DNA of 64,000 nucleotides from an uncultured Gammaproteobacteria bacterium. Its GTDB lineage: Bacteria > Patescibacteriota > Microgenomatia > UBA8517. Under the pieces are notes generated by a model. It made no database searches, was not told the origin of the DNA, and worked only from the letters and a program-made list of their open reading frames with translations. The DNA is taken from contig CAZRJH010000003.1 of assembly GCA_964600575.1 (NCBI GenBank), positions 81,640 through 145,639 of the forward strand, read 5' to 3'. This document shows, one piece after another, positions 6,490-29,224 of the stretch (positions within the stretch are counted from its first letter, which is position 1; each line of letters begins with the position of its first letter). A program made the position numbers and the translations under genes.

Positions 6490-6536
6490 TTTTTGCAGGT
6501 TTGATTTAGCAAGTGGAGTATACAGGAAGGTCTAAA

Positions 6537-6546
6537 ATGATACAAT
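6537..6546 (+). promoter_or_regulatory. Candidate extended -10 promoter element (ATGATACAAT) for the PMT-like gene at 6554
   Basis: The TGn-TACAAT hexamer ends 7 nt before the ATG, implying a leaderless or near-leaderless transcript. It lies in the 64-bp divergent intergenic region 6490..6553. Confidence 0.3.
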
Positions 6547-6553
6547 TCTAATT

Positions 6554-8269: not shown

Positions 8270-8293
8270 AATTATATGCCATCAATAATGTAA

Positions 8294-8320
8294 TTTTTCG
8301 TTGCCTCGCAACGTAAAAGA
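8294..8320. terminator. Candidate bidirectional intrinsic terminator between convergent genes
   Basis: The inverted repeat CGTTGC-ctc-GCAACG (8299..8313) is flanked by TTTTT (8294..8298) on one side and TAAAAGA on the other. It lies in the 51-bp gap between the 3' ends of 6554..8269 (+) and 8321..10006 (-). Confidence 0.45.
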
Positions 8321-10808: not shown

Positions 10809-10818
10809 ATATGGCTTG

Positions 10819-10828
10819 ATGATACAAT
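10819..10828 (+). promoter_or_regulatory. Candidate extended -10 promoter element (ATGATACAAT) for the PMT-like gene at 10843
   Basis: The 10-mer is identical to the one at 6537..6546. It lies in the 34-bp divergent gap, and an AGGA sits 5-8 nt upstream of the ATG. Confidence 0.3.
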
Positions 10829-10842
10829 CATATAGGAAAATA

Positions 10843-12495: not shown

Positions 12496-12503
12496 ACACC
12501 CAT

Positions 12504-15855: not shown

Positions 15856-17491
15856 ATATATTCTCGCAGTTATTGTACTTTTTGCAGCAGTATTTCGTTT
15901 GTGGAACTTGGGGTCCATCCCCCCCGGGCTAACACCGGACGAAGCCGCACTCGGTTACAACGCATACTCAATATTGCAAACAGGCAATGATGAGTATGGT
16001 GAAGTACTCCCTTTAATATTTAAGTCATTTGGAGACTATAAACCGGGTTTTTATGTATATACGGCCATACCTTTTGTCGCGATCTTGGGTTTATCCGAGT
16101 TCTCGGTTAGGTTGCCTTCTGTTGTTGCGGGTTTATTTACGGTTATTTCGATTTATCTAATTCTTAAAATTCTCTTTAAAAACGAACAAATAGGATTAGC
16201 AGGAGCATTTGCTGCAGCGGTTAATCCTTGGTTGATTTATTTTTCCAGAGGAGCTTGGGAGGCAAATTTATCTTTGGCGTTTACTCTTTTAGGAATTTTA
16301 TTCTTTCTTAAATCATTGGAAAAAGAAAAGAGTTTGCTCATAAGTGCCGCTTTTTTTGGTTTAACACTTATCACATACCAAGGGGCTAAAATCTCGACTT
16401 TGATTGTTGTTCTTATTCTTGCGGTTCTTTATAAATCAGAAATTTTAAAATTCAGAAAAGTAAATATCTTCTTATCACTTTTGATAGGTATTGTTTTTCT
16501 TATACCCGTTATATTCACTTTTTTAAACGGGCAAACATTTAGATTAAATATTTACAGTATATTTTCTTACAGAAGACCTGACACTGAGATTCAAAACATC
16601 AAAAATCAGGAGTTGTCTAATACGGAACTTAACTTTTTAGTATTTCACACGGAAAAAGTTAATTATGTTAGGGCTATTTTGGGTAGATATTTTAACAATT
16701 TTTCGGGTAGGTTTTTGTTTTTTGACGGTGATTGGGCAAATCCTGTTTCTACGCCGCCCTACCAGGGAGTACTACTCCTTTCGGATTTAATTTTATTACC
16801 TATCGGTTTTTACTTTTTACTAAAAAGCAAGGAAAATAAATCCAAGAACTTCATTTTTTTGTGGTTACTTATGGCTCCGATATCGGTGGCTCTTTCCAGA
16901 GACGAACTTAATGCGGTTAGAGATCTAAATTTAGCCGTTCCTCTTGTTGTGGTGTCGTCCTTTGGTGTTTACGGTTTACTTTCGAACAAAATAAAAAAAG
17001 TAAACCTATTTGGTGCTGTTTTGTGTGTTTTATCTATAGGGAGTGCTTTCTTATATTTTGCGGACGCTTATTACATTCACACACCGGCTCATAATTCTCA
17101 ATATTTTAGATATGGATATAAACAGGTTTTTGAGTTTGTAGAGCCTATCAGAGAAAAGTATAGCAAAGTAGTTTTTGAACAATCATTCAACCAACCTTAT
17201 ATTTATTACTTGTTTTATGGCTCTAAAGACCCCGGCATTTATCAGACCCAAGAAAAACTATCAGATAGCGAGTTTAAGGGGGATGTGGGGTATATCACAT
17301 CTCTTGATAATATAAGTTTCGAACGATTGGATTGGCAGGTCATTAAAAATAGCCATAATGTGTTAGTCGTTGCAGCACACACATCCGTTCCGCCCGAAGT
17401 TTTTGCCTACAAGGATAAATATGTTTTGCTAAATCAAATAAAATATCTTAACGGAAGAGATGTGGCTTTCGACATTTTCGAAATAAAATGA
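15821..17491 (+). CDS. GT-C membrane glycosyltransferase, PMT/ArnT-like; paralog 6
   Basis: 'LTPDEAALGYNAYSILQTGNDEYGEVLPLIFKSFGDY' is the D-E loop motif. An alternative start is at 15836 (MAIRAN). Confidence 0.7.
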   Translation: MTTVAMAIRANKYILAVIVLFAAVFRLWNLGSIPPGLTPDEAALGYNAYSILQTGNDEYGEVLPLIFKSFGDYKPGFYVYTAIPFVAILGLSEFSVRLPSVVAGLFTVISIYLILKILFKNEQIGLAGAFAAAVNPWLIYFSRGAWEANLSLAFTLLGILFFLKSLEKEKSLLISAAFFGLTLITYQGAKISTLIVVLILAVLYKSEILKFRKVNIFLSLLIGIVFLIPVIFTFLNGQTFRLNIYSIFSYRRPDTEIQNIKNQELSNTELNFLVFHTEKVNYVRAILGRYFNNFSGRFLFFDGDWANPVSTPPYQGVLLLSDLILLPIGFYFLLKSKENKSKNFIFLWLLMAPISVALSRDELNAVRDLNLAVPLVVVSSFGVYGLLSNKIKKVNLFGAVLCVLSIGSAFLYFADAYYIHTPAHNSQYFRYGYKQVFEFVEPIREKYSKVVFEQSFNQPYIYYLFYGSKDPGIYQTQEKLSDSEFKGDVGYITSLDNISFERLDWQVIKNSHNVLVVAAHTSVPPEVFAYKDKYVLLNQIKYLNGRDVAFDIFEIK

Positions 17492-19140
17492 AAAAAATAT
17501 CTTTTGAATTAAAAGTTTTGACTTTAGTCTTAGCTTTGGCGTTCATTCTGCGCTTTTTTAACTTGTCAAATTATCCCGCATTTAACGCCGACGAAGCGGC
17601 GATCGGCTACAACGCTTATTCATTAATACTTACCGGATTAGATGAACACGGACATACCTGGCCAGTCCATTTCCAGTCTTTTAATGATTGGAAACCTGGT
17701 ATGTATTTCTACCTTGTTATTCCTTTTGTTAAATTATTGGGGTTAAACGAACTTGCGGTCAGAATCCCGAACGCGGCTCTGGGAGTACTAACAGTTTATT
17801 TTGTGTATTTATTGTCTAATTTAATTTTTGACGCAAGAAAAATAAATTTAGGCAAATATACAGTTGAAATAGGGTTTGTGTCATCTTTGTTTCTTGCAAT
17901 ATCTCCTTGGCATATTCACTTTTCAAGGGGTGGTTGGGAAGTTGGTACTGCTACTTTTTTTATGACTTCTGGTTTTTATTATTTCCTCCGATCGGTAAAA
18001 AATAATCTTTCGTTAAAACCAATGCTTGTTTCAGTGTTTTTGCTGGTTATGTCGTTTTACACATATCATGCAGCAAGAGTTATTGTTCCCCTGCTTACAG
18101 TCGTAGGTATTTTGATATACAAAAACGATATTTTTTCAAAAATAAATATTAAAAATATTGTTTATGTTATTCTGTTCGGATTTGTCCTTATTCTCCCTTT
18201 AACAAAAGATTTAATATCGGGCGATGCCTTGTCCAGAGCAGCGGGGGTGGGTCTTTTTGCCGACAAAGGACCCATCAACAGAATTAACGAGCAGCGCGGA
18301 GAACATCAAAATGTTTCGGGGATCTTTACTAGGGTAGAACATAACAAAGCTGTAAATTATGCCTTGGCTTTTCTGCGAAACTGGTCAATGCATTATCAGG
18401 GGGAATTTTTGTTTATGACGGGGGACGGCATTCAAAGAAACAAGGTACCCGAAACAGGACAAATGTATCTTGCGGATATTGTTTTTCTGGCATTGGGTTT
18501 GATATTGCTAACCACTTTGCTTAAGAAAGAGACAGTGTTTTTGCTTTCGTGGCTTATCATTGCTCCAGTAGCCGCCGCCCTCACTTTTCAGGCGCCACAT
18601 GCACTTAGAGCAGAAAATATGGTTATTCCATTGGTTTTAATTAGCTCCTTGGGCTTTTTTAGTTTGTTAGAAAAGAAAAACAGATATTTTATTATCCTGA
18701 CTTCAATTTTTCTTGTGTGGTGTTTTGTCAGATATTTGCATATGTATTATATTCACATGAGTAAAGACTTTCCTTATTCTTCTCAATATGGGCTAAAGGA
18801 ATTATCGGAATATATAATTACAAATCAAGATAAATATAAAGACATAGTGGTTACGGATAGATATGATCAGCCTTATATTCTTTTTCTTTTTTATTCAAAA
18901 TATACTCCAAAGCTTTTTCAATTCAAACATTCGCTTAGTTCGAGAGATGACTTTGGCTTTTCTACCGTAAGAGATTTTGATAAATATCACTTTGTAAGTA
19001 TCGATTTTGAGTCGATTAAAAATAACTACCCGCAAAGCTTGATAGTCGGTACAAAGGATGAAATTCCTAAAGAGGCAAATGTTATTAAGAAAATCTACGG
19101 TACAAACGGTTTTGAATATTTTAATTTAGTAGCAAACTAA
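17488..19140 (+). CDS. GT-C membrane glycosyltransferase, PMT/ArnT-like; paralog 7
   Basis: 'FNADEAAIGYNAYSLILTGLDEHGHTWPVHFQSFNDW' is the D-E loop motif. There is an ATGA overlap with the upstream gene. Confidence 0.7.
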   Translation: MKKISFELKVLTLVLALAFILRFFNLSNYPAFNADEAAIGYNAYSLILTGLDEHGHTWPVHFQSFNDWKPGMYFYLVIPFVKLLGLNELAVRIPNAALGVLTVYFVYLLSNLIFDARKINLGKYTVEIGFVSSLFLAISPWHIHFSRGGWEVGTATFFMTSGFYYFLRSVKNNLSLKPMLVSVFLLVMSFYTYHAARVIVPLLTVVGILIYKNDIFSKINIKNIVYVILFGFVLILPLTKDLISGDALSRAAGVGLFADKGPINRINEQRGEHQNVSGIFTRVEHNKAVNYALAFLRNWSMHYQGEFLFMTGDGIQRNKVPETGQMYLADIVFLALGLILLTTLLKKETVFLLSWLIIAPVAAALTFQAPHALRAENMVIPLVLISSLGFFSLLEKKNRYFIILTSIFLVWCFVRYLHMYYIHMSKDFPYSSQYGLKELSEYIITNQDKYKDIVVTDRYDQPYILFLFYSKYTPKLFQFKHSLSSRDDFGFSTVRDFDKYHFVSIDFESIKNNYPQSLIVGTKDEIPKEANVIKKIYGTNGFEYFNLVAN

Positions 19141-19142
19141 CA

Positions 19143-20012
19143 ATGAAAAAACTGTCGGTAGTTTTGGCAACAAGAAACGAAGAGCAAAATATAGCCCGAT
19201 GCCTTGGCGCAATAGCGAATATTGCGGACGAAATAATAATCGTAGACGAACATTCAACAGACAAAACCAGAGAGATTGCTAAAAAATACGGCGCAAAAGT
19301 CTTTTTGGAGGAACACCACGACATATTTCACATAACAAAGCAAAAGGCTTTAGATAAAGCGTCGGGTGAGTGGGTTCTACAATTAGATGCGGATGAGGTG
19401 GTGACACCGGAGCTTGCAGCAGAAATTAAAAAAATAATCTCGGCAGAAGCTTCTACTCTCGCATCTCTGGAAATATCAGACAACAAAAAAGCAAGGCTTT
19501 TTAAGAAGCACCAGGAATCTGTTTTTAAAAGAGACGGCACTGCAAGTAACACTGATGGAGAAGTAAACGGTTTTTTTATTGCTAGGGAAAACATATTTTT
19601 AGGTAAACCCTTAATACATGCAGGTGTTTATCCCGATGGGGTTGTAAGGCTGGTTAGAAACGGTTATGCGAGTTTTCCGCAAAAAAGCGTACATGAACAA
19701 ATATCAGTCAAGGGTCAGATAAAATGGCTGGAAAACGACTTGGAACATTATGATTCACCGACCTTTTTTAGATATATCGAAAGAGCAAATCGCTATACGG
19801 ATCTAACCGCCGCGGAAATGCAAAAGATTAATGTTTCCAAAAACACCTTTAGTTTTATTAAGTACGCAATTTTTAAGCCTATACAAATTTTTGCCAGTCT
19901 TTACTTGTTTCATAGAGGTTTTTTGGATGGACCGCCCGGATTTATTTGGTCTGTTTTTTCGGGTTTACATTTTCCTTTAGCTTACTTTAAATATATTACG
20001 AACGAAACTTAG
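19143..20012 (+). CDS. GT2-family glycosyltransferase, WaaE/KdtX-like
   Basis: 'LSVVLATRNEEQNIARCL', 'IIIVDEHSTDKT', 'GEWVLQLDADEVVTPELAAEI', 'GVYPDGVVRL' and the C-terminal 'FHRGFLDGPPGFIWSVFSG' show the same architecture as 1309..2031. Confidence 0.65.
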   Translation: MKKLSVVLATRNEEQNIARCLGAIANIADEIIIVDEHSTDKTREIAKKYGAKVFLEEHHDIFHITKQKALDKASGEWVLQLDADEVVTPELAAEIKKIISAEASTLASLEISDNKKARLFKKHQESVFKRDGTASNTDGEVNGFFIARENIFLGKPLIHAGVYPDGVVRLVRNGYASFPQKSVHEQISVKGQIKWLENDLEHYDSPTFFRYIERANRYTDLTAAEMQKINVSKNTFSFIKYAIFKPIQIFASLYLFHRGFLDGPPGFIWSVFSGLHFPLAYFKYITNET

Positions 20013-20020
20013 AGCAATAA

Positions 20021-21061
20021 ATGCCAAATATCGATAAATATAAAATTGCAGTTGACGGAGGTCCCCTTAAAAGTGGAGACTCGATTCGAGGGATTGGTGT
20101 TTACACATCCGAACTTACTAAAAAGCTAGGAATAAACACCGTTGATGTTTTTTTGGAAGACCTTTCAAGATATCAAATAGTCCACTTTACTAGATTTAAC
20201 CCTTTTTTTAGAGCTTTTCCGTCAAAAAAACCGCAAGGGGTTAAGTTTGTACTTACTTTATACGACTTAATACCTTTAATTTACCCTGAAATATATAAAC
20301 CGGGCCTTAAAGGATCTATGAATTGGCAGATTAACAAATACAATATCGTTAGAAATTGCGATGCAGTAATAACAATTTCCGAAACTTCTAAAAAGGATAT
20401 CTGTAGGTTCACGGGAGTGGATCCAAATAAAGTTTTTGTCACTCATCTTGCCCCTAGATCAATTTTTAAAAAGATGAAAATAGACGATACCACCAAAAGC
20501 CATATCCTTAAGAAATACGGATTGCCTGATAAGTTTGTTCTCTATGTTGGGGATGTCAACTTTAACAAGAATATTCCGACTTTGGTTTCGGCATGTAATA
20601 AATACGGCGTTAAATTGGCGATAGCGGGAAAGCAGGTAAAAGAAATAGAAAATATGGATTTAAATCACCCCGAGCTTGCACATCTTAAAAACATCGCTTG
20701 GAAAGATGTTGCACGCTTGGGTTTTGTCGAAGACTCCGAGTTAAGCCTTCTATACAATCTGGCCTATGCTTACATTCAACCTTCTCTCTACGAAGGTTTT
20801 GGCCTTCCGGTCTTGGAAGCAATGGCCTGCGGCTGCCCTGTCGTCTCAAGCCGAACCCAAACGCTGGTAGAAATTTCCGGCGACACTTGTTTGTACGCGG
20901 ACCCGGATAGCGTAGAAGAATTTGCAAAATGCCTTAAAGCCTTGGAAGTCAAACAAACGAGAGATAAAGTTGTTAAACAACAAAGTTCCTGGCTAACTAA
21001 ATTTAATTGGCAAAAAACGGCGGCAGACACACTTAATGTATATGAAAAACTTCTTAGATAA
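20021..21061 (+). CDS. GT4-family glycosyltransferase (mannosyltransferase-like)
   Basis: 'YEGFGLPVLEAMACGCPVVSS' is the GT4 catalytic-region motif. It is a paralog of 51026..52123 and 52125..53240. Confidence 0.75.
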   Translation: MPNIDKYKIAVDGGPLKSGDSIRGIGVYTSELTKKLGINTVDVFLEDLSRYQIVHFTRFNPFFRAFPSKKPQGVKFVLTLYDLIPLIYPEIYKPGLKGSMNWQINKYNIVRNCDAVITISETSKKDICRFTGVDPNKVFVTHLAPRSIFKKMKIDDTTKSHILKKYGLPDKFVLYVGDVNFNKNIPTLVSACNKYGVKLAIAGKQVKEIENMDLNHPELAHLKNIAWKDVARLGFVEDSELSLLYNLAYAYIQPSLYEGFGLPVLEAMACGCPVVSSRTQTLVEISGDTCLYADPDSVEEFAKCLKALEVKQTRDKVVKQQSSWLTKFNWQKTAADTLNVYEKLLR

Positions 21062-22181
21062 GTTCGTTTTGTCAAAAATACTTTATTGGTTTATTTTTTT
21101 GCTTGTTATCCTTTTGTTTTCGGTTAATTTTGTAAAGCCGCAAAGAATTTTGTTAGGCGGCGGTTATGATAATTACATCAAAAACCCGTACTTGTTTGCT
21201 TTTGGCAACTTTGACGGCGAACATTATGCCTCTATCGCTAAAAGGGGTTATGTTTTGGGAGAGCGTGCTTTTTTCCCACTGTATCCCGGAATTTTGTATA
21301 TTTCTTCTAAAGTGTTTGGATCCGTCGATGCCTCGGTGTATTTTTCGGGGATTGTTGTCTCTTTGGTAAGTTTCTGTATTGGCCTAATCGGTCTTTATAG
21401 ATTAGTTAAAGAAGAGTTTGATGTCGGTATCGCAAAGCTTGTTGTTGTTTTGACTCTAGTCTTTCCCACATCTTTCTTTTTTGCCTCTGTTTACACGGAA
21501 GGTTTGTTTTTTGCGCTTTTGGTCTGGTCTTTTTACTTTGCGCGAAAAGGACAATTCATAAAAGCGTCAATTGTTGCCGCCTTTTTAACGGCAACCAGGT
21601 TCGTGGGGGTAATAATTATTCCTATAATAATCTGGGAGTGGTACCAAAAGTATTCAAACAAGAAACAAAAAACTCTTCCATGGTTTTTGGTTTTACCACC
21701 TCTTGGCCTTTTGGTTTACATGGTCTATTTAAACAACTCCGTAGGAGACCCTTTTGCTTTTTATAACAACATGTCTATATTCGGGGAACAAAGGTCATCT
21801 CACCCAATACTTCTTCCTCAAGTTATATACAGATATATTTTTAAAATTTTACCTTCTATAAATTTAAATTATTTTCCGGTGTTGTTTGTAACATTCCTTG
21901 AGTTTTTTATTGGCATAGGCTATTTATTTTTGACGGTATTTTCATTTTTTAAGTTGCCATTTTCTTATTCCGTACTTCTCGCGGCGGGGTATGTTATTCC
22001 TACTTTATCGGGTAGCTTTTCTTCTATGCCGAGGTATGTTTTGGTGCTTTTCCCCGCCTATATAATGACGGCGGTATGGCTTAGGAGCAATAAGAAATTG
22101 ACTTTTGCTTTTATATCTATATGCACTATACTTCTAATAATTTCCTTCACTCTTTTTAGTAGGGGGTATTGGATTTCCTAG
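21036..22181 (+). CDS. PIG-V/Gpi18-like (GT76-like) integral membrane mannosyltransferase
   Basis: 'FGNFDGEHYASIAKRGYVLGERAFFPLYPGIL' closely resembles the Mannosyl_trans2 signature (FDS.HFL.IAE.GY...E...AFFPL.P) of GPI mannosyltransferase II. The 381-aa protein has about 9 TM segments. Confidence 0.55.
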   Translation: MYMKNFLDKFVLSKILYWFIFLLVILLFSVNFVKPQRILLGGGYDNYIKNPYLFAFGNFDGEHYASIAKRGYVLGERAFFPLYPGILYISSKVFGSVDASVYFSGIVVSLVSFCIGLIGLYRLVKEEFDVGIAKLVVVLTLVFPTSFFFASVYTEGLFFALLVWSFYFARKGQFIKASIVAAFLTATRFVGVIIIPIIIWEWYQKYSNKKQKTLPWFLVLPPLGLLVYMVYLNNSVGDPFAFYNNMSIFGEQRSSHPILLPQVIYRYIFKILPSINLNYFPVLFVTFLEFFIGIGYLFLTVFSFFKLPFSYSVLLAAGYVIPTLSGSFSSMPRYVLVLFPAYIMTAVWLRSNKKLTFAFISICTILLIISFTLFSRGYWIS

Positions 22182-22186
22182 CTCAT

Positions 22187-23125
22187 ATGTCTAATAAATT
22201 TTGGAGTGATAAAAAAGTTTTAGTTACAGGGGGCAACGGCTTTTTGGGAACAAAACTGGTTAAAAAACTTAAGGACCTGGGGGTTAAAAAAGTTATTGTT
22301 CCGGGTTTTAAAGATTTTGATCTAAGACAATATGACAACTGTCTAAAAGTTTCCAAAGGGGTTGATGTTGTCATACATTTGGCGGCAAATGTCGGTGGCA
22401 TAGGCTATAACAGAGAGTTTCCCGGGACGCTTTTTGACGATAATATTTTAATGGGCACTCACATGATGATGGCTTCAAGAATAAACAAAGTTAAAAAGTA
22501 TGTAGCATTAGGCACTATTTGTGCATATCCAAAATTTACAAAAGTCCCATTCAAGGAAGAATATCTTTGGGACGGATACCCCGAAGAAACAAATGCCCCT
22601 TACGGGCTGGCGAAAAAGATGCAACTGGTTCAAGCCCAAGCATATCGTCAACAATACGGATTTAATGCTATTTTTCTGCTTCCTGTTAACTTGTACGGCC
22701 CGGGAGATAACTTTAGCCCAAAGTCATCTCATGTAATCCCCGCCCTTATCAAAAAGTTTGTTGAAGCTGAAAAAGATAATAAAAAAGAGGTTGAGATATG
22801 GGGAACAGGTCGGGCTTCCAGAGAGTTTTTATATGTGGACGACGCTGCGGAGGCCATAATATTGGCTGCAGAAAAATATAACAAAGCCGATCCTGTTAAT
22901 CTTGGTTCAGGTTTCGAAATAACAATAAAAGAGCTTGCTCAAAAGATTAAACGAATGACCGGTTTTGAGGGTAAGCTTATTTGGGATAAGACGAAACCTG
23001 ACGGTCAACCAAGAAGAATGTTGGATGTGTCAAAGGCAAAAAAAGAATTTGGATTTTTAGCTAAAACCGGATTTGAAGATGGTCTTGAGGAAACAATTTC
23101 CTGGTATCTTCAAAAGAATAAATGA
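22187..23125 (+). CDS. fcl: GDP-L-fucose synthase-like NAD(P)-dependent epimerase/reductase (GDP-4-keto-6-deoxymannose 3,5-epimerase/4-reductase family)
   Basis: The Rossmann N-terminus 'KVLVTGGNGFLGTKLVKKL' is followed by 'VIHLAANVGGIGYN' and 'ETNAPYGLAKKMQLVQAQAYRQQYGFNAIFLLPVNLYGPGDNF', which is the YxxxK plus substrate region typical of Fcl/WcaG. The start is at ATG 22187. Confidence 0.65.
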   Translation: MSNKFWSDKKVLVTGGNGFLGTKLVKKLKDLGVKKVIVPGFKDFDLRQYDNCLKVSKGVDVVIHLAANVGGIGYNREFPGTLFDDNILMGTHMMMASRINKVKKYVALGTICAYPKFTKVPFKEEYLWDGYPEETNAPYGLAKKMQLVQAQAYRQQYGFNAIFLLPVNLYGPGDNFSPKSSHVIPALIKKFVEAEKDNKKEVEIWGTGRASREFLYVDDAAEAIILAAEKYNKADPVNLGSGFEITIKELAQKIKRMTGFEGKLIWDKTKPDGQPRRMLDVSKAKKEFGFLAKTGFEDGLEETISWYLQKNK

Positions 23126-23781
23126 CAAAGACTGTGGTAATTGTCCCGTTTTATAACGAATCAAAGTCAATTGAGGGTGTTTTGCGAGGCATAGTGAAGT
23201 TGGGATACAAGGTGGTTGCTGTAGATGACGGCTCAAAAGACGGCGGCTTGACCGAGAAAATAAAAAATGTAACCCAATTACGACACAAAGTGAACTTGGG
23301 CAAAGGGGCTGCAATGAAGACTGGTGTTAAATGGGCTACGGATAACGGATATGACTTCTTTATTTTTATGGACGCTGACGATCAGCACGATCCGGAGGAT
23401 CTTAAAAACTTTTACAAACAAATTAGTTCCGGTAGGTACGATATAATTTTCGGATCTAGGAACATGAACTTCGCTGTACCTTTGGTTCGTTTTTTTGGAA
23501 ATAAACTAGCTTCAGCTGTAATATCTCTTCTTTTCGGTATTTACGTATCGGATGGTTTGTGCGGTTTCAGAGCTTTAACAAAAAAGGCGTTTCAAAAAAT
23601 CGAATGGGAATCAACGGGATACGGGGTAGAGTTGGAAATGGTAATCAGAACCGGTAAAAACAAGCTTCGCTATAAGGAAGTACCGGTGAAAACTAAGTAC
23701 CTCGACTCAGTCAAAGGCGTAACTGTCCTTGATGCTTTTGGAATTTTTTGGGAAGTTATTAAATGGAAAATAACTATCTGA
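23122..23781 (+). CDS. Polyprenol-phosphate sugar synthase, Dpm1/Ppm1/GtrB-like GT2
   Basis: The short (219 aa) GT2 has 'VVIVPFYNESKSI', 'VVAVDDGSKDG', 'VNLGKGAAMKTG', 'IFMDADDQHDPEDL' and 'IIFGSRN', the Dpm1-type motif set (DAD...H, then GSR). Confidence 0.65.
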   Translation: MTKTVVIVPFYNESKSIEGVLRGIVKLGYKVVAVDDGSKDGGLTEKIKNVTQLRHKVNLGKGAAMKTGVKWATDNGYDFFIFMDADDQHDPEDLKNFYKQISSGRYDIIFGSRNMNFAVPLVRFFGNKLASAVISLLFGIYVSDGLCGFRALTKKAFQKIEWESTGYGVELEMVIRTGKNKLRYKEVPVKTKYLDSVKGVTVLDAFGIFWEVIKWKITI

Positions 23782-23820
23782 CTTTAGCTATGATAGTGTA
23801 GAATATGCGTAGTTCTGTAT

Positions 23821-24153
23821 ATGATAATAGGAATACAAATAATAGGCATACTTTTCAGTTTTTCGATGGTTTATTTTGCCGTTCTCCACTACAAACGCTC
23901 AGAAATATCTAAAACCGAAATATTCACATGGCTTTTGATATGGTCGTTTGCGATAGTTGTTATTATATTCCCCGAAATATTAAGAGGTTTCTCGAACGCA
24001 TTTTTGGTAACCAGGGTTTTCGACCTTATGGTTATCGGCGGATTTGTCGTAAGTTTATCCTTAGTTGCAACTTCTTACGTTAAAACAAAAAAATTGGAAA
24101 AGAAAATTGAAGATTGGGTTAGAAAAGACGCTCTCAGTTCTAGGAAAAAGTGA
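23821..24153 (+). CDS. Small 3-4-TM membrane protein; possible GtrA/DUF2304-like partner of the adjacent Dpm1-like synthase
   Basis: The 110-aa protein has three clear hydrophobic helices and a basic C-terminus. Its position immediately downstream of the Dpm1-like GT2 mirrors GtrB-GtrA and Ppm1-accessory arrangements. Confidence 0.35.
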   Translation: MIIGIQIIGILFSFSMVYFAVLHYKRSEISKTEIFTWLLIWSFAIVVIIFPEILRGFSNAFLVTRVFDLMVIGGFVVSLSLVATSYVKTKKLEKKIEDWVRKDALSSRKK

Positions 24154-24929
24154 AATCGATTATGCCCAACCCTAAGATTTCGATCGTAATACCTTCACTT
24201 AATAAAGGGGAATATATAAAAAGGACACTAGATTCAATCTTTTCGCAAAGTTACAAAAATTTCGAGGTTATAGTAATGGATGGTGGGTCAACAGATCAAA
24301 CTCTCAAAATACTTAAAAAATTCACATCAAAATACCCCAACAAGATATCTGTTGAGTCAAAAAAAGACGAAGGACAAGCTGCGGCAGTGAATTCAGGCAT
24401 TAAAAAAAGCAGTGGCGATGTTGTCGCCTATATAAATGCTGACGATTATTATTTGGGAGAGGTTTTTTCTAAGATTGCTAAAGTCTATAAAGCGGCTGTA
24501 AATTGGTATGTCGGTGATGGTGTTGTGGTTAGTCAAGAAGGAGTGGAAATCTTTAAATTTGTAAGCTTTTACAAAAAGATACTCAAAAAGATTAATAGTT
24601 ACAAACTATTACTTGTAGTAAATTACATTGTTCAGCCTTCCGTTTTTCTATCAAGACGAGCATACGACGAATTTGGTCCTTTCAGCGGAAGTAAAAAATT
24701 CATAACCGAATACGAGATGTGGCTAAAGCTGGGAAAGATCGGTATGCCTAATTTGATCGATGAAGATGTTTCAGCATTTAGGATGTATCCTCAGACAATA
24801 ACAGGATCAAGTTCGGCTATATTACTACAAGAAGACGAGAGAATAGTAAAAAAGTATACAAAAAATAAGATCTATATTTTCTTGCACAGACTCAATAATT
24901 TAGCAAGGAAAATTGTTCAATCTTTGTAG
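24150..24929 (+). CDS. GT2-family glycosyltransferase
   Basis: 'ISIVIPSLNKGEYI', 'VIVMDGGSTDQT' and 'YINADDYY' are GT2 motifs. Confidence 0.7.
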   Translation: MKSIMPNPKISIVIPSLNKGEYIKRTLDSIFSQSYKNFEVIVMDGGSTDQTLKILKKFTSKYPNKISVESKKDEGQAAAVNSGIKKSSGDVVAYINADDYYLGEVFSKIAKVYKAAVNWYVGDGVVVSQEGVEIFKFVSFYKKILKKINSYKLLLVVNYIVQPSVFLSRRAYDEFGPFSGSKKFITEYEMWLKLGKIGMPNLIDEDVSAFRMYPQTITGSSSAILLQEDERIVKKYTKNKIYIFLHRLNNLARKIVQSL

Positions 24930-26387
24930 ATGAAAAATTTTTTTAATAAAAACAAATTTTTAATATTCATCTGCCTTTTGGGCTTCGTGTTATATTTTCC
25001 GTCACTTTTTGGATTTTACACTAACGATGATTTCTATCACCTAAAGTTGGCAAACGCAAAAACTGTAGGAGATTTTTTTAACTTCTTTAATCTTTTTAAA
25101 AGCGCCGGAGGACAGCTCTTGTATAGGCCGCTGACCACCCATGTCTTTTATTTCCTAGGCTGGTCTTTATTTGACCTAAACCCGTTGTGGCTTCACGTTG
25201 TTTCGTTTGTTATGTATTTTTTTACAATTTTTATTGTTCAAAGGATTTCTTTTGAAATCACACAAGACAACAAGAGGTCGATTTTGGTAGCATTCCTTTA
25301 CGGTGTTTCGGCAAGCCATTTTGGCCATTTATATTATTTGGCAACAGAAATTATTTTGGCGGTTTTTTTCTTTCCTGCCGTTTATTTTTTTATTAGGTAT
25401 ATAAAAAGCGGGAAGATTCTTTTCTACTTTTATACATTTGTATTCTTTGTGTTTGGGTTAATGGCTAAGGAAAACTCAATTGTTTTGCTTGGAGTATATC
25501 CGTTGTCTTTCGCTTTATTAAAATACAAAAAAATCTCGGTTGTTGATGCAAAATTATTTGTAAAGATTTATATTCCGTTTATTTTGATTTCAATGGTTTA
25601 TTTATATTTACATTTTTCAAAATACGGTGTTGTAAGTGGAGACACTTATTCATTTAACTTTTCACCTTTAAGAGCTGTCAATACCATTGCTTGGTATCTT
25701 TTTTGGTCATTCAACATTCCGGAAATGTTTTTGGATTTTATTGGTCCGGGTTTAAAAGTTAATCAAAACCTAACTCTGTTCTGGGGAGGATATGTCTATC
25801 CAATTGTCACACTGTTTATCTCACAGATTGTTATTCTTTCTGTGATTTTTTACAGAAGGATAAAAAATATTACCAATAATGTAACCATTTATTTGTTTTC
25901 TGTTGTCTGGTTTGTTTTTACCCTAGCTCCAATATTGTTTCTACCGGAACATAAGTTTAGTTTTTATTTAACTCTACCGCTTTTTGGGGTGGCATTGTTT
26001 ATTTCGGAAGTTATTTATAAACAAAATAAAAAGATGATAGTGCTATTCTTGTTGCTGTGGGTTTTCACATCAGTTTTGACGCTCAAGCTAACGTTTGTGA
26101 CCAACTGGATAACCCAAGGCCAAGCTATTTCTAAAAGGGTTGATTTATTTTTTAAGGAAAATTCTCAAAAATTCATAAATAAACAAATATATTTTATAGA
26201 TACGGATAAAGATGACAGCTTGCCTTGGTCTCCAACCGAAACTGTCAAGACGGCACTTTCGGATAAAAACTATTTCGACGTGTTTCACCCGGATATTTCT
26301 GAGAATATACATTATTGGGGATACGAAACCTTACCTGAAGAAAAAGATATTTATGTAATCAACTCCAGAATTTTTCTGGGTTATTGA
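24930..26387 (+). CDS. Polytopic GT-C-like membrane protein (PMT_2/DUF2723-like)
   Basis: The 485-aa protein has more than 10 TM segments. The N-terminal loop 'FYTNDDFYHLKLA' contains an acidic pair (a D-D variant of the GT-C loop-1 motif), and there is a short C-terminal soluble domain. Confidence 0.45.
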   Translation: MKNFFNKNKFLIFICLLGFVLYFPSLFGFYTNDDFYHLKLANAKTVGDFFNFFNLFKSAGGQLLYRPLTTHVFYFLGWSLFDLNPLWLHVVSFVMYFFTIFIVQRISFEITQDNKRSILVAFLYGVSASHFGHLYYLATEIILAVFFFPAVYFFIRYIKSGKILFYFYTFVFFVFGLMAKENSIVLLGVYPLSFALLKYKKISVVDAKLFVKIYIPFILISMVYLYLHFSKYGVVSGDTYSFNFSPLRAVNTIAWYLFWSFNIPEMFLDFIGPGLKVNQNLTLFWGGYVYPIVTLFISQIVILSVIFYRRIKNITNNVTIYLFSVVWFVFTLAPILFLPEHKFSFYLTLPLFGVALFISEVIYKQNKKMIVLFLLLWVFTSVLTLKLTFVTNWITQGQAISKRVDLFFKENSQKFINKQIYFIDTDKDDSLPWSPTETVKTALSDKNYFDVFHPDISENIHYWGYETLPEEKDIYVINSRIFLGY

Positions 26388-26397
26388 ATCAAATAAG

Positions 26398-27051
26398 ATG
26401 TCGAAAATTGCAGAACATTTTGACAATATTGCCAAAGATTATGACAGTTACAAGAAAAATAATAGTTTTTACTATTCAAACCTTAAGAATCTTTTGGCAA
26501 GATTAATACCAAAAAATTCAAAAGTTATGGAAATAGGTTGTGGAACGGGTGATATCTTAGCTCATCTTGAACCAAAAAGTGGTTATGGAGTCGACATCAG
26601 TCGTAATATGGTTAGGCTTGCCAAAAGCAAATACAAGCAATTAGATAACTTAACATTCTCAACAACATACCCTGACGGACTTTATGATTACGTTTTTATG
26701 GCCGACGTTGTGGAGCATTTAGATAATCCATTGCGCGTGTTTGAAGCAGCGTATAAACATCTGAGAAAGAAAGGCATTTTTGTGATTACTATGGCAAATC
26801 CGATATGGGAGCCGCTTTTAATGTTTTGGGAAAAAATGGGTTGGAAAATGCCCGAAGGCTATCACAAGCGTCTTGGTTACAAAGAAATAGTGAAGATGGT
26901 GAGAACGACCGGAAAATACAAAACTCGACATATTTACGAACTACTTATTCCTGTCAACATATTTTTCCTCACAAAATTTGTTAACAAATTTTTATTCAAA
27001 TATTTTGAAAGATTTTCTTTTATAGAGTGTCTGATTTTCACCAAACTTTAA
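26398..27051 (+). CDS. Class I SAM-dependent methyltransferase
   Basis: Motif I 'VMEIGCGTGDIL' and the post-I acidic residue 'GVDIS' are present, as is motif II/III 'DYVFMADVVEHLDNP'. Confidence 0.7.
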   Translation: MSKIAEHFDNIAKDYDSYKKNNSFYYSNLKNLLARLIPKNSKVMEIGCGTGDILAHLEPKSGYGVDISRNMVRLAKSKYKQLDNLTFSTTYPDGLYDYVFMADVVEHLDNPLRVFEAAYKHLRKKGIFVITMANPIWEPLLMFWEKMGWKMPEGYHKRLGYKEIVKMVRTTGKYKTRHIYELLIPVNIFFLTKFVNKFLFKYFERFSFIECLIFTKL

Positions 27052-28162
27052 ACTCCAAAAAAGCTCTAAATACCATTTTTATGAGTAGTAAACCGTGGTA
27101 AAACCTGTTTATGTTCGTTGAACCGTAAATGCGCTCTTTGTATCTAACTGGAACCTCCACAATTTTCAGTCTTCGCTTTACTGCAGTAAATATTAAAGCA
27201 AAATCGCCAAATGGGTCAGTTTCAAGATACTTTAAGTAGTCTTTCTTATATTTTATAAAATCTTTTCTGAATAATGCCTTAGTGCCGCATAAAGTATCCT
27301 TAAATCTGGTTTCAAAAATTCGACTGAATATTTTCCCAAAAAACATATTTGCGATTTTATTCAAAGTCCGCATGGCATCGACCTCCATGGGATATACAAG
27401 TCTGCACCCGTTTGCAAATTCGGCCTTTCCAGAAGCCAATAAGTTATAAAATTTCACTAAATCTTTTGAGCTAACAGTCATGTCAGCATCGTAGATTATT
27501 AATATATCTCCCGTTGCTTTTTCAAAACCCAGCCTAACGGCGTCAGACTTGCCGACACCCTTTTGTATATAGGCTTTTACATTTCGATATTTTTTTACAA
27601 TTTTTTGGATTTCTTTCCAGGTTCCGTCACTTGAGTGGCCCTCTACAAATATTATCTCTTGTTTTCTTCCGAACTTGGGAATACTTTTGATAATCTTGGG
27701 GATATTTCCAGCCTCGTTTTTTGCAGGAATAATAATTGTGGAGGTTAGCTTTTTAATTGTCGGTTGGTTTATAGGTTCAGCGGTTGTAAGATAAGTTGTT
27801 CCAAAAAACACTCTTTTTGTATTTGTAACCTTGTATCCTGATAAAAAAAGCATATTTTCCACGTCATCGGGGTCTGCCCAGTTTCTTAAATTTTTATTTT
27901 TCCTGATTCTGGCAAAATCGGCCAATTTAAAAAAAATTTCCAATAAATGGTTTGGATATATAACAAGTATTTTGGACTTGTTTCCGTTTCTGGAAGATCT
28001 CACTTTGGTGAAAAAACTTTGTATATCATGAGCGTTGGAAACGGTATCGACAAAAACTTTACCTTCAAATTTGCGAGACTCCAAATCGATGCCTTTGTGA
28101 TATGCTTGCCTTGGTTTGTTGGTTATAATGCGATAGAATTCGAGCAACTTGTTTTTTTGCAT
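27038..28162 (-). CDS. GT2-family glycosyltransferase (Dpm1/GtrB-like core) with a ~135-aa N-terminal extension
   Basis: 'IIIPAKNEAGNI', 'IIFVEGHSSDGT', 'GKSDAVRLG' and 'IIYDADMTV' are GT2/Dpm1-like motifs. The N-terminal 130 aa have no motif I recognise. Confidence 0.6.
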   Translation of the reverse strand: MQKNKLLEFYRIITNKPRQAYHKGIDLESRKFEGKVFVDTVSNAHDIQSFFTKVRSSRNGNKSKILVIYPNHLLEIFFKLADFARIRKNKNLRNWADPDDVENMLFLSGYKVTNTKRVFFGTTYLTTAEPINQPTIKKLTSTIIIPAKNEAGNIPKIIKSIPKFGRKQEIIFVEGHSSDGTWKEIQKIVKKYRNVKAYIQKGVGKSDAVRLGFEKATGDILIIYDADMTVSSKDLVKFYNLLASGKAEFANGCRLVYPMEVDAMRTLNKIANMFFGKIFSRIFETRFKDTLCGTKALFRKDFIKYKKDYLKYLETDPFGDFALIFTAVKRRLKIVEVPVRYKERIYGSTNINRFYHGLLLIKMVFRAFLEFKVW

Positions 28163-28210
28163 TGGTTAACACGATATTATAATCGAAGAGGTTAAAATCA
28201 CAATTAATTT

Positions 28211-29221
28211 ATGAAAAAAATTTCTAAAGCTGTTTATTTGCTTTTCCCTTTTTTCTCGGTATTGTCCTTGGCTGCGCTTTTTATAGAAAGCGTAACTTAT
28301 TCTGGTTTTTTTGCTAAATATGTTTTGTTGGATGCAAAGCTGATAATGATTTTTGACATAGCTTTGGGTCTCTTCTTGGTTATGGGTAAAAATGGTTTCG
28401 ATGTTCAAAAATCCAGTGTATACAACGGTTTACACAGCCTTGTTTTTCATCTTAGTTACTTGTTCTCACCAGTTCTAGTCCTTTTTTATTACTTGATGGT
28501 CTCTGTTGAGACTACAAACTATCCAAATTTTGTTTTCTCAAGCTACCATATTATCCCTGACAATTTTATGTATTTGGTTTTTTTGGATGTATACCTGGTG
28601 GTACTTGGTGTTTTGGTCGAAAAACCTCATTTGAAGGCACTTTTACCTAAGTTTTATAACTCAATTAATGACGACCGCGAGGACAAACTGATAAACTCTT
28701 CAAGAGTATTGCTTGGTCTCCAATCTTTGATTGTAATATTTGTTTTAAGTAATTTTGCCAAAACATCGCGTGAAATTCTAAAAAGTAATATTTTTATTTT
28801 TCATAATTTGAATTATTCATATGACCAAAAAATGACTTCAAGTTGGAACGATTTTTACAGGTTCATGTTTTTAGTTAAAAAAGTAACCCCCGAAAACTCA
28901 GTAATAGCGATACCGCCTTCCGTGAGACCTTGGTTATCTGAGGGAAATAGCGTTTTGGTCCGGTATTTTCTCTATCCTAGAAAGTTGATCTCGCCGGATG
29001 AACCAAAAACACAAAATCTAACCCCTCAATATTATTTATTGGCAAAAGGGTTGTGGAAGGCAAGCAACCCCGAAGATTACGGCTGGCCAAAAATTAGAAT
29101 TGATTCAGAAGAGATTTTCTATTTTGATTTAGCATCGGGTAAAGTAGTCGCTAAGAAATCGGGTTATAATCCGGAAGACCTAGCTAATAAGGATGCTTGG
29201 GGTGTAATAAAAACTAAATAA
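28211..29221 (+). CDS. Integral membrane protein of unknown function
   Basis: The 336-aa protein has an N-terminal signal/TM segment and about 6 hydrophobic segments in its N-terminal half, with a soluble C-terminal domain. It has no recognisable catalytic motif. Confidence 0.35.
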   Translation: MKKISKAVYLLFPFFSVLSLAALFIESVTYSGFFAKYVLLDAKLIMIFDIALGLFLVMGKNGFDVQKSSVYNGLHSLVFHLSYLFSPVLVLFYYLMVSVETTNYPNFVFSSYHIIPDNFMYLVFLDVYLVVLGVLVEKPHLKALLPKFYNSINDDREDKLINSSRVLLGLQSLIVIFVLSNFAKTSREILKSNIFIFHNLNYSYDQKMTSSWNDFYRFMFLVKKVTPENSVIAIPPSVRPWLSEGNSVLVRYFLYPRKLISPDEPKTQNLTPQYYLLAKGLWKASNPEDYGWPKIRIDSEEIFYFDLASGKVVAKKSGYNPEDLANKDAWGVIKTK

Positions 29222-29224
29222 CCA

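Follow-up and report, generated by a model that had tools for sequence, protein, structure and literature searches.

A GT2 glycosyltransferase and its DUF2304 partner as a probable two-subunit polyprenyl-phosphate sugar synthase in a Microgenomates glycosylation locus

What does a small membrane protein do for the short GT2 glycosyltransferase whose gene directly precedes its own, which sugar would the two handle, and which enzymes would use the product? The 64-kb window analyzed here (the whole stretch of DNA, 64,000 nucleotides long) raises these questions in the Microgenomates, which are uncultured, have small genomes and have cell envelopes that are essentially uncharacterized; our search of the literature on CPR/Patescibacteria GT-C systems returned nothing. 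The first-pass annotation of the window had likened the pair to GtrB and GtrA of phage seroconversion and to actinobacterial Ppm1 with its accessory protein, that is, to a synthase of polyprenyl-phosphate-hexose with a small partner that assists flipping, ManC supplying GDP-mannose and GT-C enzymes using the lipid-linked sugar. The analysis below indicates that the pair is most likely a two-part enzyme of a known type (GacI/GacJ, WpsA/WpsB, PpgS/Rv3632) in a new lineage, the Microgenomates (CPR).

The 219-aa GT2 and its small membrane partner

Both open reading frames are present with the coordinates, lengths and motifs previously claimed for them, and both start with ATG:

23122–23781, plus strand: SYN, a 219-aa GT2 without transmembrane (TM) helices, predicted polyprenyl-phosphate glycosyltransferase and catalytic subunit (PF00535, 7e-24)
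23821–24153, plus strand: DUF2304 protein (GacJ/WpsB/Rv3632 family), a 110-aa, three-TM subunit with a basic C-terminal helix that is predicted to be cytoplasmic

Judged by the large numbers of their homologs in a word-indexed search (1408 for SYN and 270 for the small protein), both are genuine genes and not chance ORFs; in a set clustered at 50% identity, 358 representative sequences match the 110-aa protein as well.

SYN carries the motifs DDGS (at residue 35), DAD (84–86), QH (88–89), GSRN (111–114) and DGLCGF (144), and its single hydrophobic stretch by the Kyte-Doolittle measure (residues 129–147) is not a transmembrane helix. The closest PDB sequences are DPMS (5mlz, 1.6e-12), GtrB (2e-8) and ArnC (1.7e-5), and the top 23 Foldseek matches of its AlphaFold model (pLDDT 88.4) are all ArnC, GtrB or DPMS, with TM-scores of 0.61–0.78; identity to DPMS 5mm1 in the Foldseek comparison is 28%, and the DAD, QH and GSR motifs align with those of DPMS. 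The PpgS model (NCBIfam NF058614) matches SYN end to end (94.4 bits, 3–214 of 226 model positions) and the AglJ model (TIGR04182) matches its catalytic part alone (96 bits, 3–192 of 293 model positions). These scores lie far under the respective equivalog cut-offs of 370 and 325, so SYN is orthologous to no characterized enzyme and its donor is not readable from homology. When GT2b, the next GT2 of the locus, was put through the same searches as an internal control, chondroitin synthase, GalT1 and SpsA came first, unlike for SYN. Sequence and modeled fold together support the placement of SYN in the polyprenyl-phosphate GT2 clade (DPMS/GtrB/ArnC/PpgS/AglJ) and not among the soluble GT-A enzymes, as the first-pass annotation had proposed.

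The small protein is membrane-embedded, as had been expected of it, with hydrophobic helices at residues 1–19, 36–54 and 66–84 (Kyte-Doolittle) and a basic C-terminal tail (10 K/R in residues 86–110); its AlphaFold model (pLDDT 72) has helices at 2–25, 31–57 and 61–109. By profile comparison it is a clear DUF2304 member (PF10066: 69 bits against a cut-off of 25.5, E = 4.8e-19, 2–104 of 106 model positions) and not GtrA. A GtrA identity was rejected on the absence of any PF04138 signal up to E = 10, and Pfam gives no GtrA match among the annotated ORFs of the window. Many of the conserved residues on the soluble side fall in the C-terminal helix: T89, E93 and R101 never vary, and conservation is 90% or more at K94, K95, E97 and A104; these positions agree with the WpsB interface (residues 93–115).

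This family assignment bears directly on what the partner might do. GacJ, WpsB and Rv3632 bind and stimulate a TM-less polyprenyl-phosphate-HexNAc synthase, and the experiments with them do not show flipping: GacJ and GacI form a detergent-stable complex in which the Km for undecaprenyl phosphate (Und-P) falls from 18.7 to 1.1 μM, WpsB makes WpsA more active and an active WpsB-WpsA fusion exists, and Rv3632 stimulates PpgS. Flipping in DUF2304 systems has been assigned to a separate, proposed Wzx-type protein. The idea of a GtrA-like partner that aids flipping is therefore not borne out by the DUF2304 match and the characterized activators, and in mycobacteria the exact counterpart is PpgS/Rv3632 and not Ppm1 with its accessory protein. 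For annotation the gain is that “DUF2304 domain-containing protein” can here be read as “GacJ-like synthase subunit”.

Neighboring genes and the conserved block

The genes on which the following sections draw are:

4804–19140: GT-C array of eight PMT_2/PMT/PTPS_related membrane glycosyltransferase genes (Pfam)
9987–10808, minus strand: unannotated 273-aa ORF within the GT-C array
21036–22181, plus strand: PIG-V-like GT-C, a 381-aa polytopic protein with eight hydrophobic segments, candidate consumer of the lipid-linked sugar
22169–23125, plus strand: Fcl/GMER-like SDR (GDP-L-fucose synthase homolog) whose stop overlaps the SYN start (ATGA), candidate donor-sugar supplier
24150–24929, plus strand: GT2b, a 259-aa soluble-type GT2 in the WpsC position, candidate elongating transferase (PF00535, 2.6e-30)
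24930–26387, plus strand: weakly PMT_2-like 485-aa polytopic protein with nine hydrophobic segments, second candidate GT-C consumer
27038–28162, minus strand: second Dpm1/AglJ-like GT2, 374 aa, with a ~140-aa N-terminal extension and no TM helix
42941–44236, plus strand: Wzx-type (Polysacc_synt) flippase candidate (PF01943, 5e-25), 19 kb from the pair
62495–63613, plus strand: ManC, GDP-mannose pyrophosphorylase domain (NTP_transferase plus ManC beta-helix)

The SYN gene lies directly upstream of the DUF2304 gene in 31 of 31 species-level loci of related genomes, and the median gap is −4 bp. This count comes from a genome scan with a 17-sequence DUF2304 alignment that covered Microgenomates-group genomes and one record labeled Woesearchaeota; outside the Microgenomates the adjacency is known from the literature, and a tblastn search of plasmids with the DUF2304 protein gave zero matches. 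The order in the conserved block is GT-C, (GDP-fucose-synthase-like SDR), SYN, DUF2304, GT2, GT-C, so that GT-C genes are kept on both flanks of the pair, and the proposed link of the pair with GT-C enzymes holds in the synteny of related genomes; the GT2a and GT4 genes upstream of the pair (19143–21061) are also kept. A promoter and terminator scan of 18500–28500 stayed at chance level (25 sites with 30.3 expected, and 10 with 7.7 expected); it placed no terminator-like plus-strand site between 22169 and 24929, which is compatible with one operon.

The GT-C genes differ in how clearly they are recognized. The 381-aa protein of the window has zero Pfam matches, and its orthologs match PF04188 (Mannosyl_trans2) in 16 of 24 cases (best 2.8e-17), PMT_2 in five and GT87 in three; most loci keep the gene upstream of SYN. 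The 485-aa protein matches PMT_2 under the cut-off (E = 0.0016), and 15 of the 31 loci keep it behind GT2b. The PMT-like array noted earlier is real: PMT_2, PMT or PTPS_related is matched above the Pfam cut-off by nine ORFs of the window and weakly by five more. In loci L003–L010 comparable GT-C arrays precede the conserved block.

The Fcl-like SDR immediately precedes SYN in 16 of the 31 loci, and six further loci carry it at another position. GDP-L-fucose synthases fill the first 18 places among its PDB matches (8.6e-61 for 1bsv of E. coli), and it scores 294 bits (1.4e-87) with NF047922, under the cut-off of 500. It keeps the GMER catalytic residues (T/C in GTICAYP, YxxxK, and H in SSHV), whose roles we take to be those of the S/T, C, YxxxK and H residues of E. 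coli GMER. Gmd, which would complete a GDP-fucose pathway, turned up neither in the window nor in the 10 kb that follow ManC. The flanking SDR varies by lineage along with other neighbors: the pair has Fcl-like and GT2 neighbors in Microgenomates, and in the variant locus L041 GalE-like and deacetylase genes flank it, the deacetylase, not a glycosyltransferase, coming after DUF2304.

The start of GT2b overlaps or abuts the DUF2304 stop, and such stop/start overlap is frequent across loci; of 27 loci, 20 have GT2b as the next gene after DUF2304 and 25 have it within 4.1 kb. Its PDB matches are ordinary GT-A enzymes (the three named above and the WrtF fucosyltransferase, 9omh/9omm). A natural fusion, P0311, joins an N-terminal DUF2304 part to a C-terminal GT2b part; it forms one 90% cluster (n = 3, from separate Logan contigs) and has a SYN-like GT2 upstream. 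As proof that DUF2304 scaffolds two enzymes it was set aside as a weak hint, being one cluster of three among 1649 GT2b homologs. The tight GT2b linkage and this one fusion point to elongation of the lipid-linked sugar, and they count against its use as a monosaccharide donor.

The more distant genes complete the inventory. The second Dpm1/AglJ-like GT2 (AglJ model 101 bits; best PDB match DPMS at 3.7e-13, then ArnC) is present in 14 of 31 loci and is a rival supplier of lipid-linked sugar that could equally feed the PMT-like array. The conserved core holds no flippase; two unannotated downstream membrane proteins (336 aa and 447 aa) match no informative family, nor do their orthologs. Only by analogy with GacK and WpsG might the Wzx-type gene serve the pair. 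ManC does have the mannose-1-phosphate guanylyltransferase domain attributed to it (TIGR01479, 276 bits, guanylyltransferase part only), and it lies 39 kb from the pair in a separate Wzx/Wzy-type module that continues beyond the window with Bac_transf (initiating transferase) and DUF4012.

Proposed mechanism, donor sugar and alternatives

We consider it very probable that SYN and the DUF2304 protein make up a two-subunit polyprenyl-phosphate sugar synthase of the GacI/GacJ type. By homology with the characterized pairs, the two proteins would form a complex, the small one would stimulate the large one, the acceptor would be a polyprenyl phosphate and the active site would face the cytoplasm. 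SYN would be held on the cytoplasmic face by amphipathic interface helices (~121–138 and ~202–218 in the model) and by the DUF2304 subunit, which the positive-inside rule predicts to be N-out/C-in and whose conserved basic C-terminal helix (~85–109) may dock on SYN and turn the active site to the lipid. With a metal bound by its DxD motif, SYN would then move one sugar from a nucleotide sugar to a polyprenyl monophosphate, and the partner would improve catalytic efficiency, as GacJ lowers the Km for undecaprenyl phosphate, and would not itself flip the lipid. Flipping of the lipid-linked monosaccharide would fall to another protein (the sole annotated candidate being the Wzx-type gene 19 kb away), and the flipped product would be the donor for GT-C enzymes, most likely the 381-aa PIG-V-like and 485-aa proteins and possibly the PMT_2 array. 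For the two-subunit synthase and this monosaccharide-donor fate taken jointly, the chances seem to us about even.

The characterized DUF2304-partnered synthases all use UDP-HexNAc, and on that precedent HexNAc is our tentative first choice for the sugar that SYN handles; mannose or glucose is possible but somewhat less favored, L-fucose or another GDP-6-deoxyhexose, suggested by the coupled Fcl-like gene, is rather doubtful, and some other sugar is improbable. The adjacent SDR changes with lineage in step with the flanking genes, as expected of a donor maker, and this lends support to the specific idea, which we nevertheless regard as unlikely, that SYN uses the Fcl-like enzyme's own product (GDP-L-fucose or a related GDP-6-deoxyhexose) to make polyprenyl-phosphate-fucose. 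A literature search found no precedent for a lipid-phosphate-fucose donor. The identity of SYN does not follow the presence of the Fcl-like gene in the locus, so no inference on the donor can be drawn from SYN identity. If polyprenyl-phosphate-fucose is made, some of the many Microgenomates GT-C enzymes would be extracytoplasmic fucosyltransferases.

The alternative that weighs most keeps the same synthase and changes the fate of its product. As in the WpsA/WpsB/WpsC system, the polyprenyl-phosphate-monosaccharide could be a primer that is elongated on the cytoplasmic face by GT2b, and perhaps by the GT2/GT4 enzymes of 19143–21061, after which the polyprenyl-phosphate-oligosaccharide would be flipped by the Wzx-type flippase and transferred en bloc by a GT-C enzyme; the Fcl-like enzyme would then give GDP-fucose to an elongating transferase and not to SYN. 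We hold this to be possible, on the unlikely side. The order of synthase, DUF2304 and glycosyltransferase is that of wpsA-wpsB-wpsC, where WpsC elongates GlcNAc-P-C55, and the close coupling of GT2b to DUF2304 in most loci, the P0311 fusion with its SYN-like neighbor, the resemblance of GT2b to elongating GT-A enzymes (including WrtF, which uses GDP-fucose), the conserved GT2a and GT4 genes and the Wzx-like and Wzy_C genes of the window all fit it. However, the fusion, as a single cluster among the GT2b homologs, could be a frameshift that joins overlapping genes, 19–31 kb separate the pair from the Wzx and Wzy genes, whose module has a Bac_transf initiator of its own, the many GT-C genes fit monosaccharide donors, and L041 has its deacetylase where an elongating enzyme should be.

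Two further readings touch the synthase itself. That SYN makes polyprenyl-phosphate-mannose from ManC-derived GDP-mannose while the small protein aids flipping, in the manner of GtrB/GtrA or Ppm1, draws on the clade that SYN shares with GtrB and DPMS, on the ManC gene and on the PIG-V-like neighbor and PMT_2-like array, whose families both use Dol-P-Man in eukaryotes; a flipping role of DUF2304 proteins has also never been directly excluded. We judge it quite improbable in view of the three-TM DUF2304 nature of the partner, without PF04138 similarity at E = 10, the activator role of its characterized relatives beside a separately proposed flippase, the second Dpm1-like GT2 available for mannose, and the distance of ManC, which sits by Bac_transf in a different module while the gene that overlaps SYN is Fcl-like and the known DUF2304-partnered synthases use UDP-HexNAc. 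The three-tier scheme of nucleotide sugar, lipid-linked sugar and extracytoplasmic transfer put forward in the first-pass annotation was thus broadly right, and its flipping partner and its ManC-to-mannose route are the parts left unsupported. More improbable again is a soluble or other acceptor for SYN (as in glycosyl-3-phosphoglycerate synthase, or a lipid-linked glycan) with DUF2304 as a mere tether. GpgS, MGS and WrtF do occur among its lower-ranked Foldseek matches, and Pfam Osmo_MPGsynth matches weakly, under the cut-off (E = 5.6e-4), but the best 23 fold matches and the best sequence matches are all polyprenyl-phosphate GT2s, obligate DUF2304 pairing is a hallmark of polyprenyl-phosphate-HexNAc synthases, and GT2b, from the same locus and searches, illustrates how a GT2 with another kind of acceptor looks.

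The finding does not overturn current understanding. It places a well-characterized Gram-positive/mycobacterial module, a polyprenyl-phosphate sugar synthase with its probable DUF2304 activator, at the center of a conserved Microgenomates glycosylation block, and it gives a short list of proteins from which to identify the lipid-linked sugar of these organisms: SYN, DUF2304, GT2b and two GT-C proteins of the block, the PIG-V-like one and the one of 485 aa.

Comparison with known systems

In the GacI/J/K/L system of Streptococcus pyogenes, GacI is the GlcNAc-P-undecaprenol synthase and GacJ its activator, and there as here a TM-less GT2 is followed by a three-TM DUF2304 protein of ~110 aa with GT-C enzymes encoded nearby, a likeness of gene order and Pfam family and not of direct sequence comparison with GacI. 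The setting differs: the Wzx-type flippase is not adjacent here, and in place of a rhamnan cluster there is a CPR glycosylation island rich in GT-C genes. WpsA/WpsB/WpsC of Lactococcus (GlcNAc-P-C55 synthase, activator and elongating glycosyltransferase) show exactly our three-gene order, and the architecture of a TM-less synthase with a three-TM partner is that of WpsA/WpsB; our DUF2304 model, like the published one of WpsB, is a helical hairpin with a long helix at the C terminus. The DUF2304 part is N-terminal both in the WpsB-WpsA fusion and in P0311, whose fusion partner is the third gene (GT2b) and not the synthase. The rhamnan pathway of the Lactococcus system is absent here.

PpgS (Rv3631) and Rv3632 of Mycobacterium tuberculosis, a polyprenyl-phosphate-GalNAc synthase and its stimulatory small membrane protein with the GT-C enzyme Rv3779 as consumer, resemble our pair in the minimal length of the synthase, in having a DUF2304 partner and a nucleotide-sugar SDR close by, and in their GT-C consumers (candidate ones here). 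The neighboring SDR is Fcl-like here, not GalE-like, and L041 is the closer functional look-alike.

GtrB/GtrA/GtrX of phage seroconversion and ArnC/ArnE-F/ArnT have the same GT2 fold and, by prediction, the same chemistry, and the same three-tier logic ending in a GT-C enzyme. GtrB and ArnC, however, have C-terminal TM helices of their own and SYN has none, and GtrA and ArnE/F are flippase candidates of families unrelated to DUF2304. Among the Dol-P-Man synthases, archaeal DPMS (5mlz) is the best PDB sequence match of SYN; the Pyrococcus DPMS chain itself carries four TM helices. The human pair DPM1/DPM3 resembles the present one in concept, with a small membrane subunit that tethers a catalytic subunit lacking TM helices; DPM3 and the D1 part of mycobacterial Ppm1 (D1/D2) are not DUF2304 proteins, unlike the partner of SYN.

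The probable synthase gene and its DUF2304 partner

Two adjacent genes that the first-pass annotation had called, a Dpm1/GtrB-type GT2 (here SYN) and a small membrane protein, were both found in place, and they are listed here with the neighboring genes discussed below:

22169–23125, + strand: GDP-L-fucose synthase homolog (Fcl-like SDR)
23122–23781, + strand: SYN, 219-aa GT2
23821–24153, + strand: 110-aa DUF2304 protein (PF10066)
24150–24929, + strand: GT2b, 259-aa GT2
27038–28162, − strand: second Dpm1/AglJ-like GT2 with no TM segment (best PDB match DPMS, 3.7e-13)

SYN carries DDGS at residue 35, DAD at 84–86 followed by QH at 88–89, GSRN at 111–114 and DGLCGF at 144, so that the predicted DAD...H (84–89) and GSRN motifs are both present, and its hydropathy profile contains no transmembrane helix. 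It matches the Pfam GT2 family (7e-24), and in NCBIfam it scores highest with the models of two dolichyl/polyprenyl-phosphate enzymes, AglJ at 96 bits and PpgS at 94 bits (end-to-end over model positions 3–214 of 226), and less well with those of a haloarchaeal Dol-P hexose transferase, of PgfS and of ArnC; the equivalog cut-offs are far above all of these scores. Among PDB sequences the Pyrococcus Dol-P-Man synthase ranks first (1.6e-12, query residues 3–216), then GtrB (2e-8) and ArnC (1.7e-5). In a Foldseek search of the PDB with the SYN AlphaFold model (pLDDT 88.4, pTM 0.87) the best 23 matches are ArnC, GtrB and DPMS structures (E from 6.9e-15, TM-scores 0.61–0.78), and the soluble GT-A enzymes GpgS, MGS and WrtF rank below them. 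The same PDB sequence search with GT2b as an internal control returned chondroitin synthase, GalT1 and SpsA first; thus SYN groups with the polyprenyl-phosphate GT2s rather than with soluble transferases, and its Dpm1/GtrB-type assignment holds.

The 110-aa protein has hydrophobic helices at residues 1–19, 36–54 and 66–84, as expected of the three-helix protein described earlier, plus a basic tail. Its proposed likeness to GtrA did not survive profile comparison, which gave PF10066 at 69 bits (cut-off 25.5; model positions 2–104 of 106) and no GtrA signal at E = 10. The flippase label was rejected as well, since characterized DUF2304 proteins activate a synthase and flipping is assigned to Wzx-type proteins. 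At E ≤ 1e-3 the protein has matches to the representatives of 358 clusters (50% identity); in a set of 50 diverse members, W41 and P51 never vary, and Q6, Y18, W37, R65, D68 and A104 hardly do. A PDB search found no related solved structure; the structure model (pLDDT 72) is a hairpin followed by a long helix, residues 61–109. Many of the conserved soluble-side residues sit on the C-terminal helix, where, among close homologs, T89, E93 and R101 do not vary and K94, K95, E97 and A104 reach at least 90% conservation.

A conserved block within a glycosylation island

The stop codon of the Fcl-like SDR overlaps the SYN start codon (ATGA), and GT2b starts either at GTG 24150, overlapping the DUF2304 stop, or at ATG 24162 as in the source annotation; no + strand terminator-like site was seen within 22169–24929, in a scan that was at chance level overall. 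The window sequence is present in metagenome assemblies SRR16481186 and SRR16481187 and on a 146-kb NCBI contig, and close homologs carry the label Candidatus Microgenomates or Patescibacteria. With each GTDB species represented by a single genome, a scan gave 31 loci, from Woesebacteria, Daviesbacteria, other Microgenomates and one genome labelled Woesearchaeota. A SYN homolog lies directly upstream of DUF2304 in all 31 (gap −28 to +54 bp, median −4), and in the 27 loci that extend far enough downstream a GT2b homolog follows DUF2304 directly in 20 cases and is no more than 4.1 kb away in 25. The conserved block runs from a GT-C array through a GT2 (~285 aa), a GT4, a 381-aa membrane protein (21036–22181, +), the Fcl-like SDR (immediately before SYN in 16 of 31 loci and at another place in the locus in a further 6), SYN and DUF2304 to GT2b, a 485-aa membrane protein (24930–26387, +), a methyltransferase, the divergently transcribed AglJ-like GT2 and, last, a pair of membrane proteins. 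The SDR is its most conserved gene (71–77% identity among the closest loci).

The AglJ-like GT2 has an N-terminal extension of ~140 aa and no DUF2304 partner, is transcribed divergently from the genes of two unannotated membrane proteins (28211–30568), and is kept in 14 of 31 loci; its ortholog in locus L003 has a weak Methyltransf_23 match. It is another candidate to supply the PMT_2 array with lipid-linked sugar. In one Microgenomates lineage an AbiEii toxin-family gene (PF08843) interrupts the block between this GT2 and a 315-aa membrane protein (L008 14388–15047, L009 14388–15053, L010 14347–15006). The block, typical of Microgenomates, is found at 38–74% identity in thirteen MAGs that serve as GTDB representatives and whose records bear the title "uncultured Gammaproteobacteria bacterium" (L011–L013, L015, L018, L025, L028, L029, L032, L035–L037 and L039); this naming is apparently a placeholder or a taxonomic error.

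Nearly all annotated ORFs of the window are glycosylation genes. GT-C-like ORFs number at least 14, of which 9 pass Pfam cut-offs, and they are joined by many GT2 and GT4 genes, several methyltransferase genes, WecB, Wzx- and Wzy_C-like genes and one for an acetyltransferase. Long contigs with close homologs are ~0.6–1.1 Mb, so if this is near genome size the window is a very large genome share. A 695-aa protein (38982–41069) joins a GT4 (Glycos_transf_1, residues 190–357) to a GT2 (404–672). A 390-aa ORF (34574–35746) among GT4 and methyltransferase genes has weak alpha/alpha-toroid matches (Pec_lyase 2.3e-7, above cut-off; Prenyltrans and SQHop_cyclase_C at 2e-4, both below), unusual for a glycosylation cluster.

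Donor sugar and fate of the product

ManC (62495–63613, +), which had been proposed to feed GDP-mannose to SYN, is real, and GDP-mannose is diffusible and also a GDP-fucose precursor; however, ManC lies 39 kb from the pair and precedes a gene for an initiating transferase (Bac_transf), in a module that also contains GT4, GT2, Wzy_C, acetyltransferase and Wzx-like genes, so a specific ManC-to-synthase link is unsupported. Beyond the right edge of the window, the genes after ManC encode a Bac_transf phosphoglycosyl transferase (216 aa) and a DUF4012 protein (683 aa; L043 3144–5902), and 8 kb further on there is an LCP-family (LytR_cpsA_psr) gene (L043 11322–12380). The glycosylation island ends here, and these genes suggest a Wzx/Wzy-type pathway for a cell-wall-attached polymer as the function of the right-hand module.

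The SDR upstream of SYN scores 294 bits with the Fcl model, its best 18 PDB matches are all GDP-fucose synthases (E. coli 1bsv, 8.6e-61), and it keeps the catalytic residues of GMER. No Gmd gene (GDP-mannose 4,6-dehydratase) was found in the window or the 10 kb past its right end. One outlier locus, from a MAG labelled Woesearchaeota (archaeal), flanks the pair with a different set of genes:

L041 5385–9096: MraY-like, GalE-like SDR (epimerase), PpgS-like GT2 (115 bits), DUF2304, NodB-type deacetylase

The gene order resembles a route from polyprenyl-P-HexNAc to HexN and reproduces the HexNAc-to-HexN logic of mycobacteria and Francisella. Either the locus was acquired by horizontal transfer, or the contig belongs to a CPR genome and was mis-binned or mislabelled. 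The comparison suggests that the SDR beside the pair supplies the donor sugar, and if so the Microgenomates enzyme could use GDP-fucose. Our literature search found no precedent for fucose as a lipid-phosphate donor, and the fucose user could equally be GT2b, whose PDB matches include the WrtF fucosyltransferase, or another transferase.

Orthologs of the 381-aa protein (n = 24) match PF04188 (PIG-V mannosyltransferase) in 16 cases (best 2.8e-17), PMT_2 in 5 and GT87 in 3, so that it is, by family membership, a predicted GT-C. Conservation of GT-C genes in the block supports the earlier proposal that the synthase serves such enzymes, and the likeliest users of its product are the two GT-C-like proteins within the block. 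We give roughly even odds that the product is a monosaccharide donor for GT-C enzymes. That it is instead a primer, elongated as by WpsC, seems less likely, though the tight SYN, DUF2304, GT2b arrangement mirrors wpsA-wpsB-wpsC and there is one natural fusion of DUF2304 with a GT2b homolog:

L042 2944–4092: P0311, DUF2304 (N-terminal) fused to a GT2b homolog (C-terminal), not to a synthase homolog

P0311 is 36% identical to GT2b (8e-46) and 24% to SYN, and a SYN-like GT2 is still present upstream. DUF2304 could thus dock more than one GT2, or a frameshift could have merged overlapping genes; as a single cluster of three members, each on a separate Logan contig, among 1649 homologs, the fusion is only a hint.

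Comparison with known synthase and DUF2304 pairs

In S. pyogenes, GacI makes GlcNAc-P-undecaprenol and forms a CHAPS-stable complex with GacJ, a 113-aa three-TM DUF2304 protein encoded directly downstream, which brings the apparent Km for Und-P down from 18.7 to 1.1 µM; the Wzx-type GacK is credited with flipping and the GT-C enzyme GacL with transfer (Rush et al., bioRxiv 10.1101/180810). The M. tuberculosis GacJ homolog Rv3632 stimulates the polyprenyl-P-GalNAc synthase PpgS (Rv3631) (bioRxiv 10.1101/180810; PMC3485146). The Lactococcus homologs WpsA, which has no TM segment, and WpsB have the same kind of activity, the WpsB C-terminal helix (residues 93–115) touches WpsA when the complex is modelled with AlphaFold, WpsB fused to WpsA is active, and the GlcNAc-P-C55 is elongated by WpsC (next gene) before Wzx-type flipping and GT-C transfer (PMC10821137).

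Whether its product is donor or primer, SYN with its DUF2304 protein probably constitutes a two-subunit polyprenyl-P sugar synthase. A known pair type thereby gains a member in an uncultured lineage, the donor sugar being the sole potentially novel element. Judged from sequence, the predicted pair is a synthase and activator of the GacI/GacJ, WpsA/WpsB or PpgS/Rv3632 type and not of the GtrB/GtrA type: it has the same architecture as GacI/GacJ and WpsA/WpsB, a TM-less GT2 with a three-TM DUF2304 protein, and with GT2b it follows the wpsA-wpsB-wpsC gene order.
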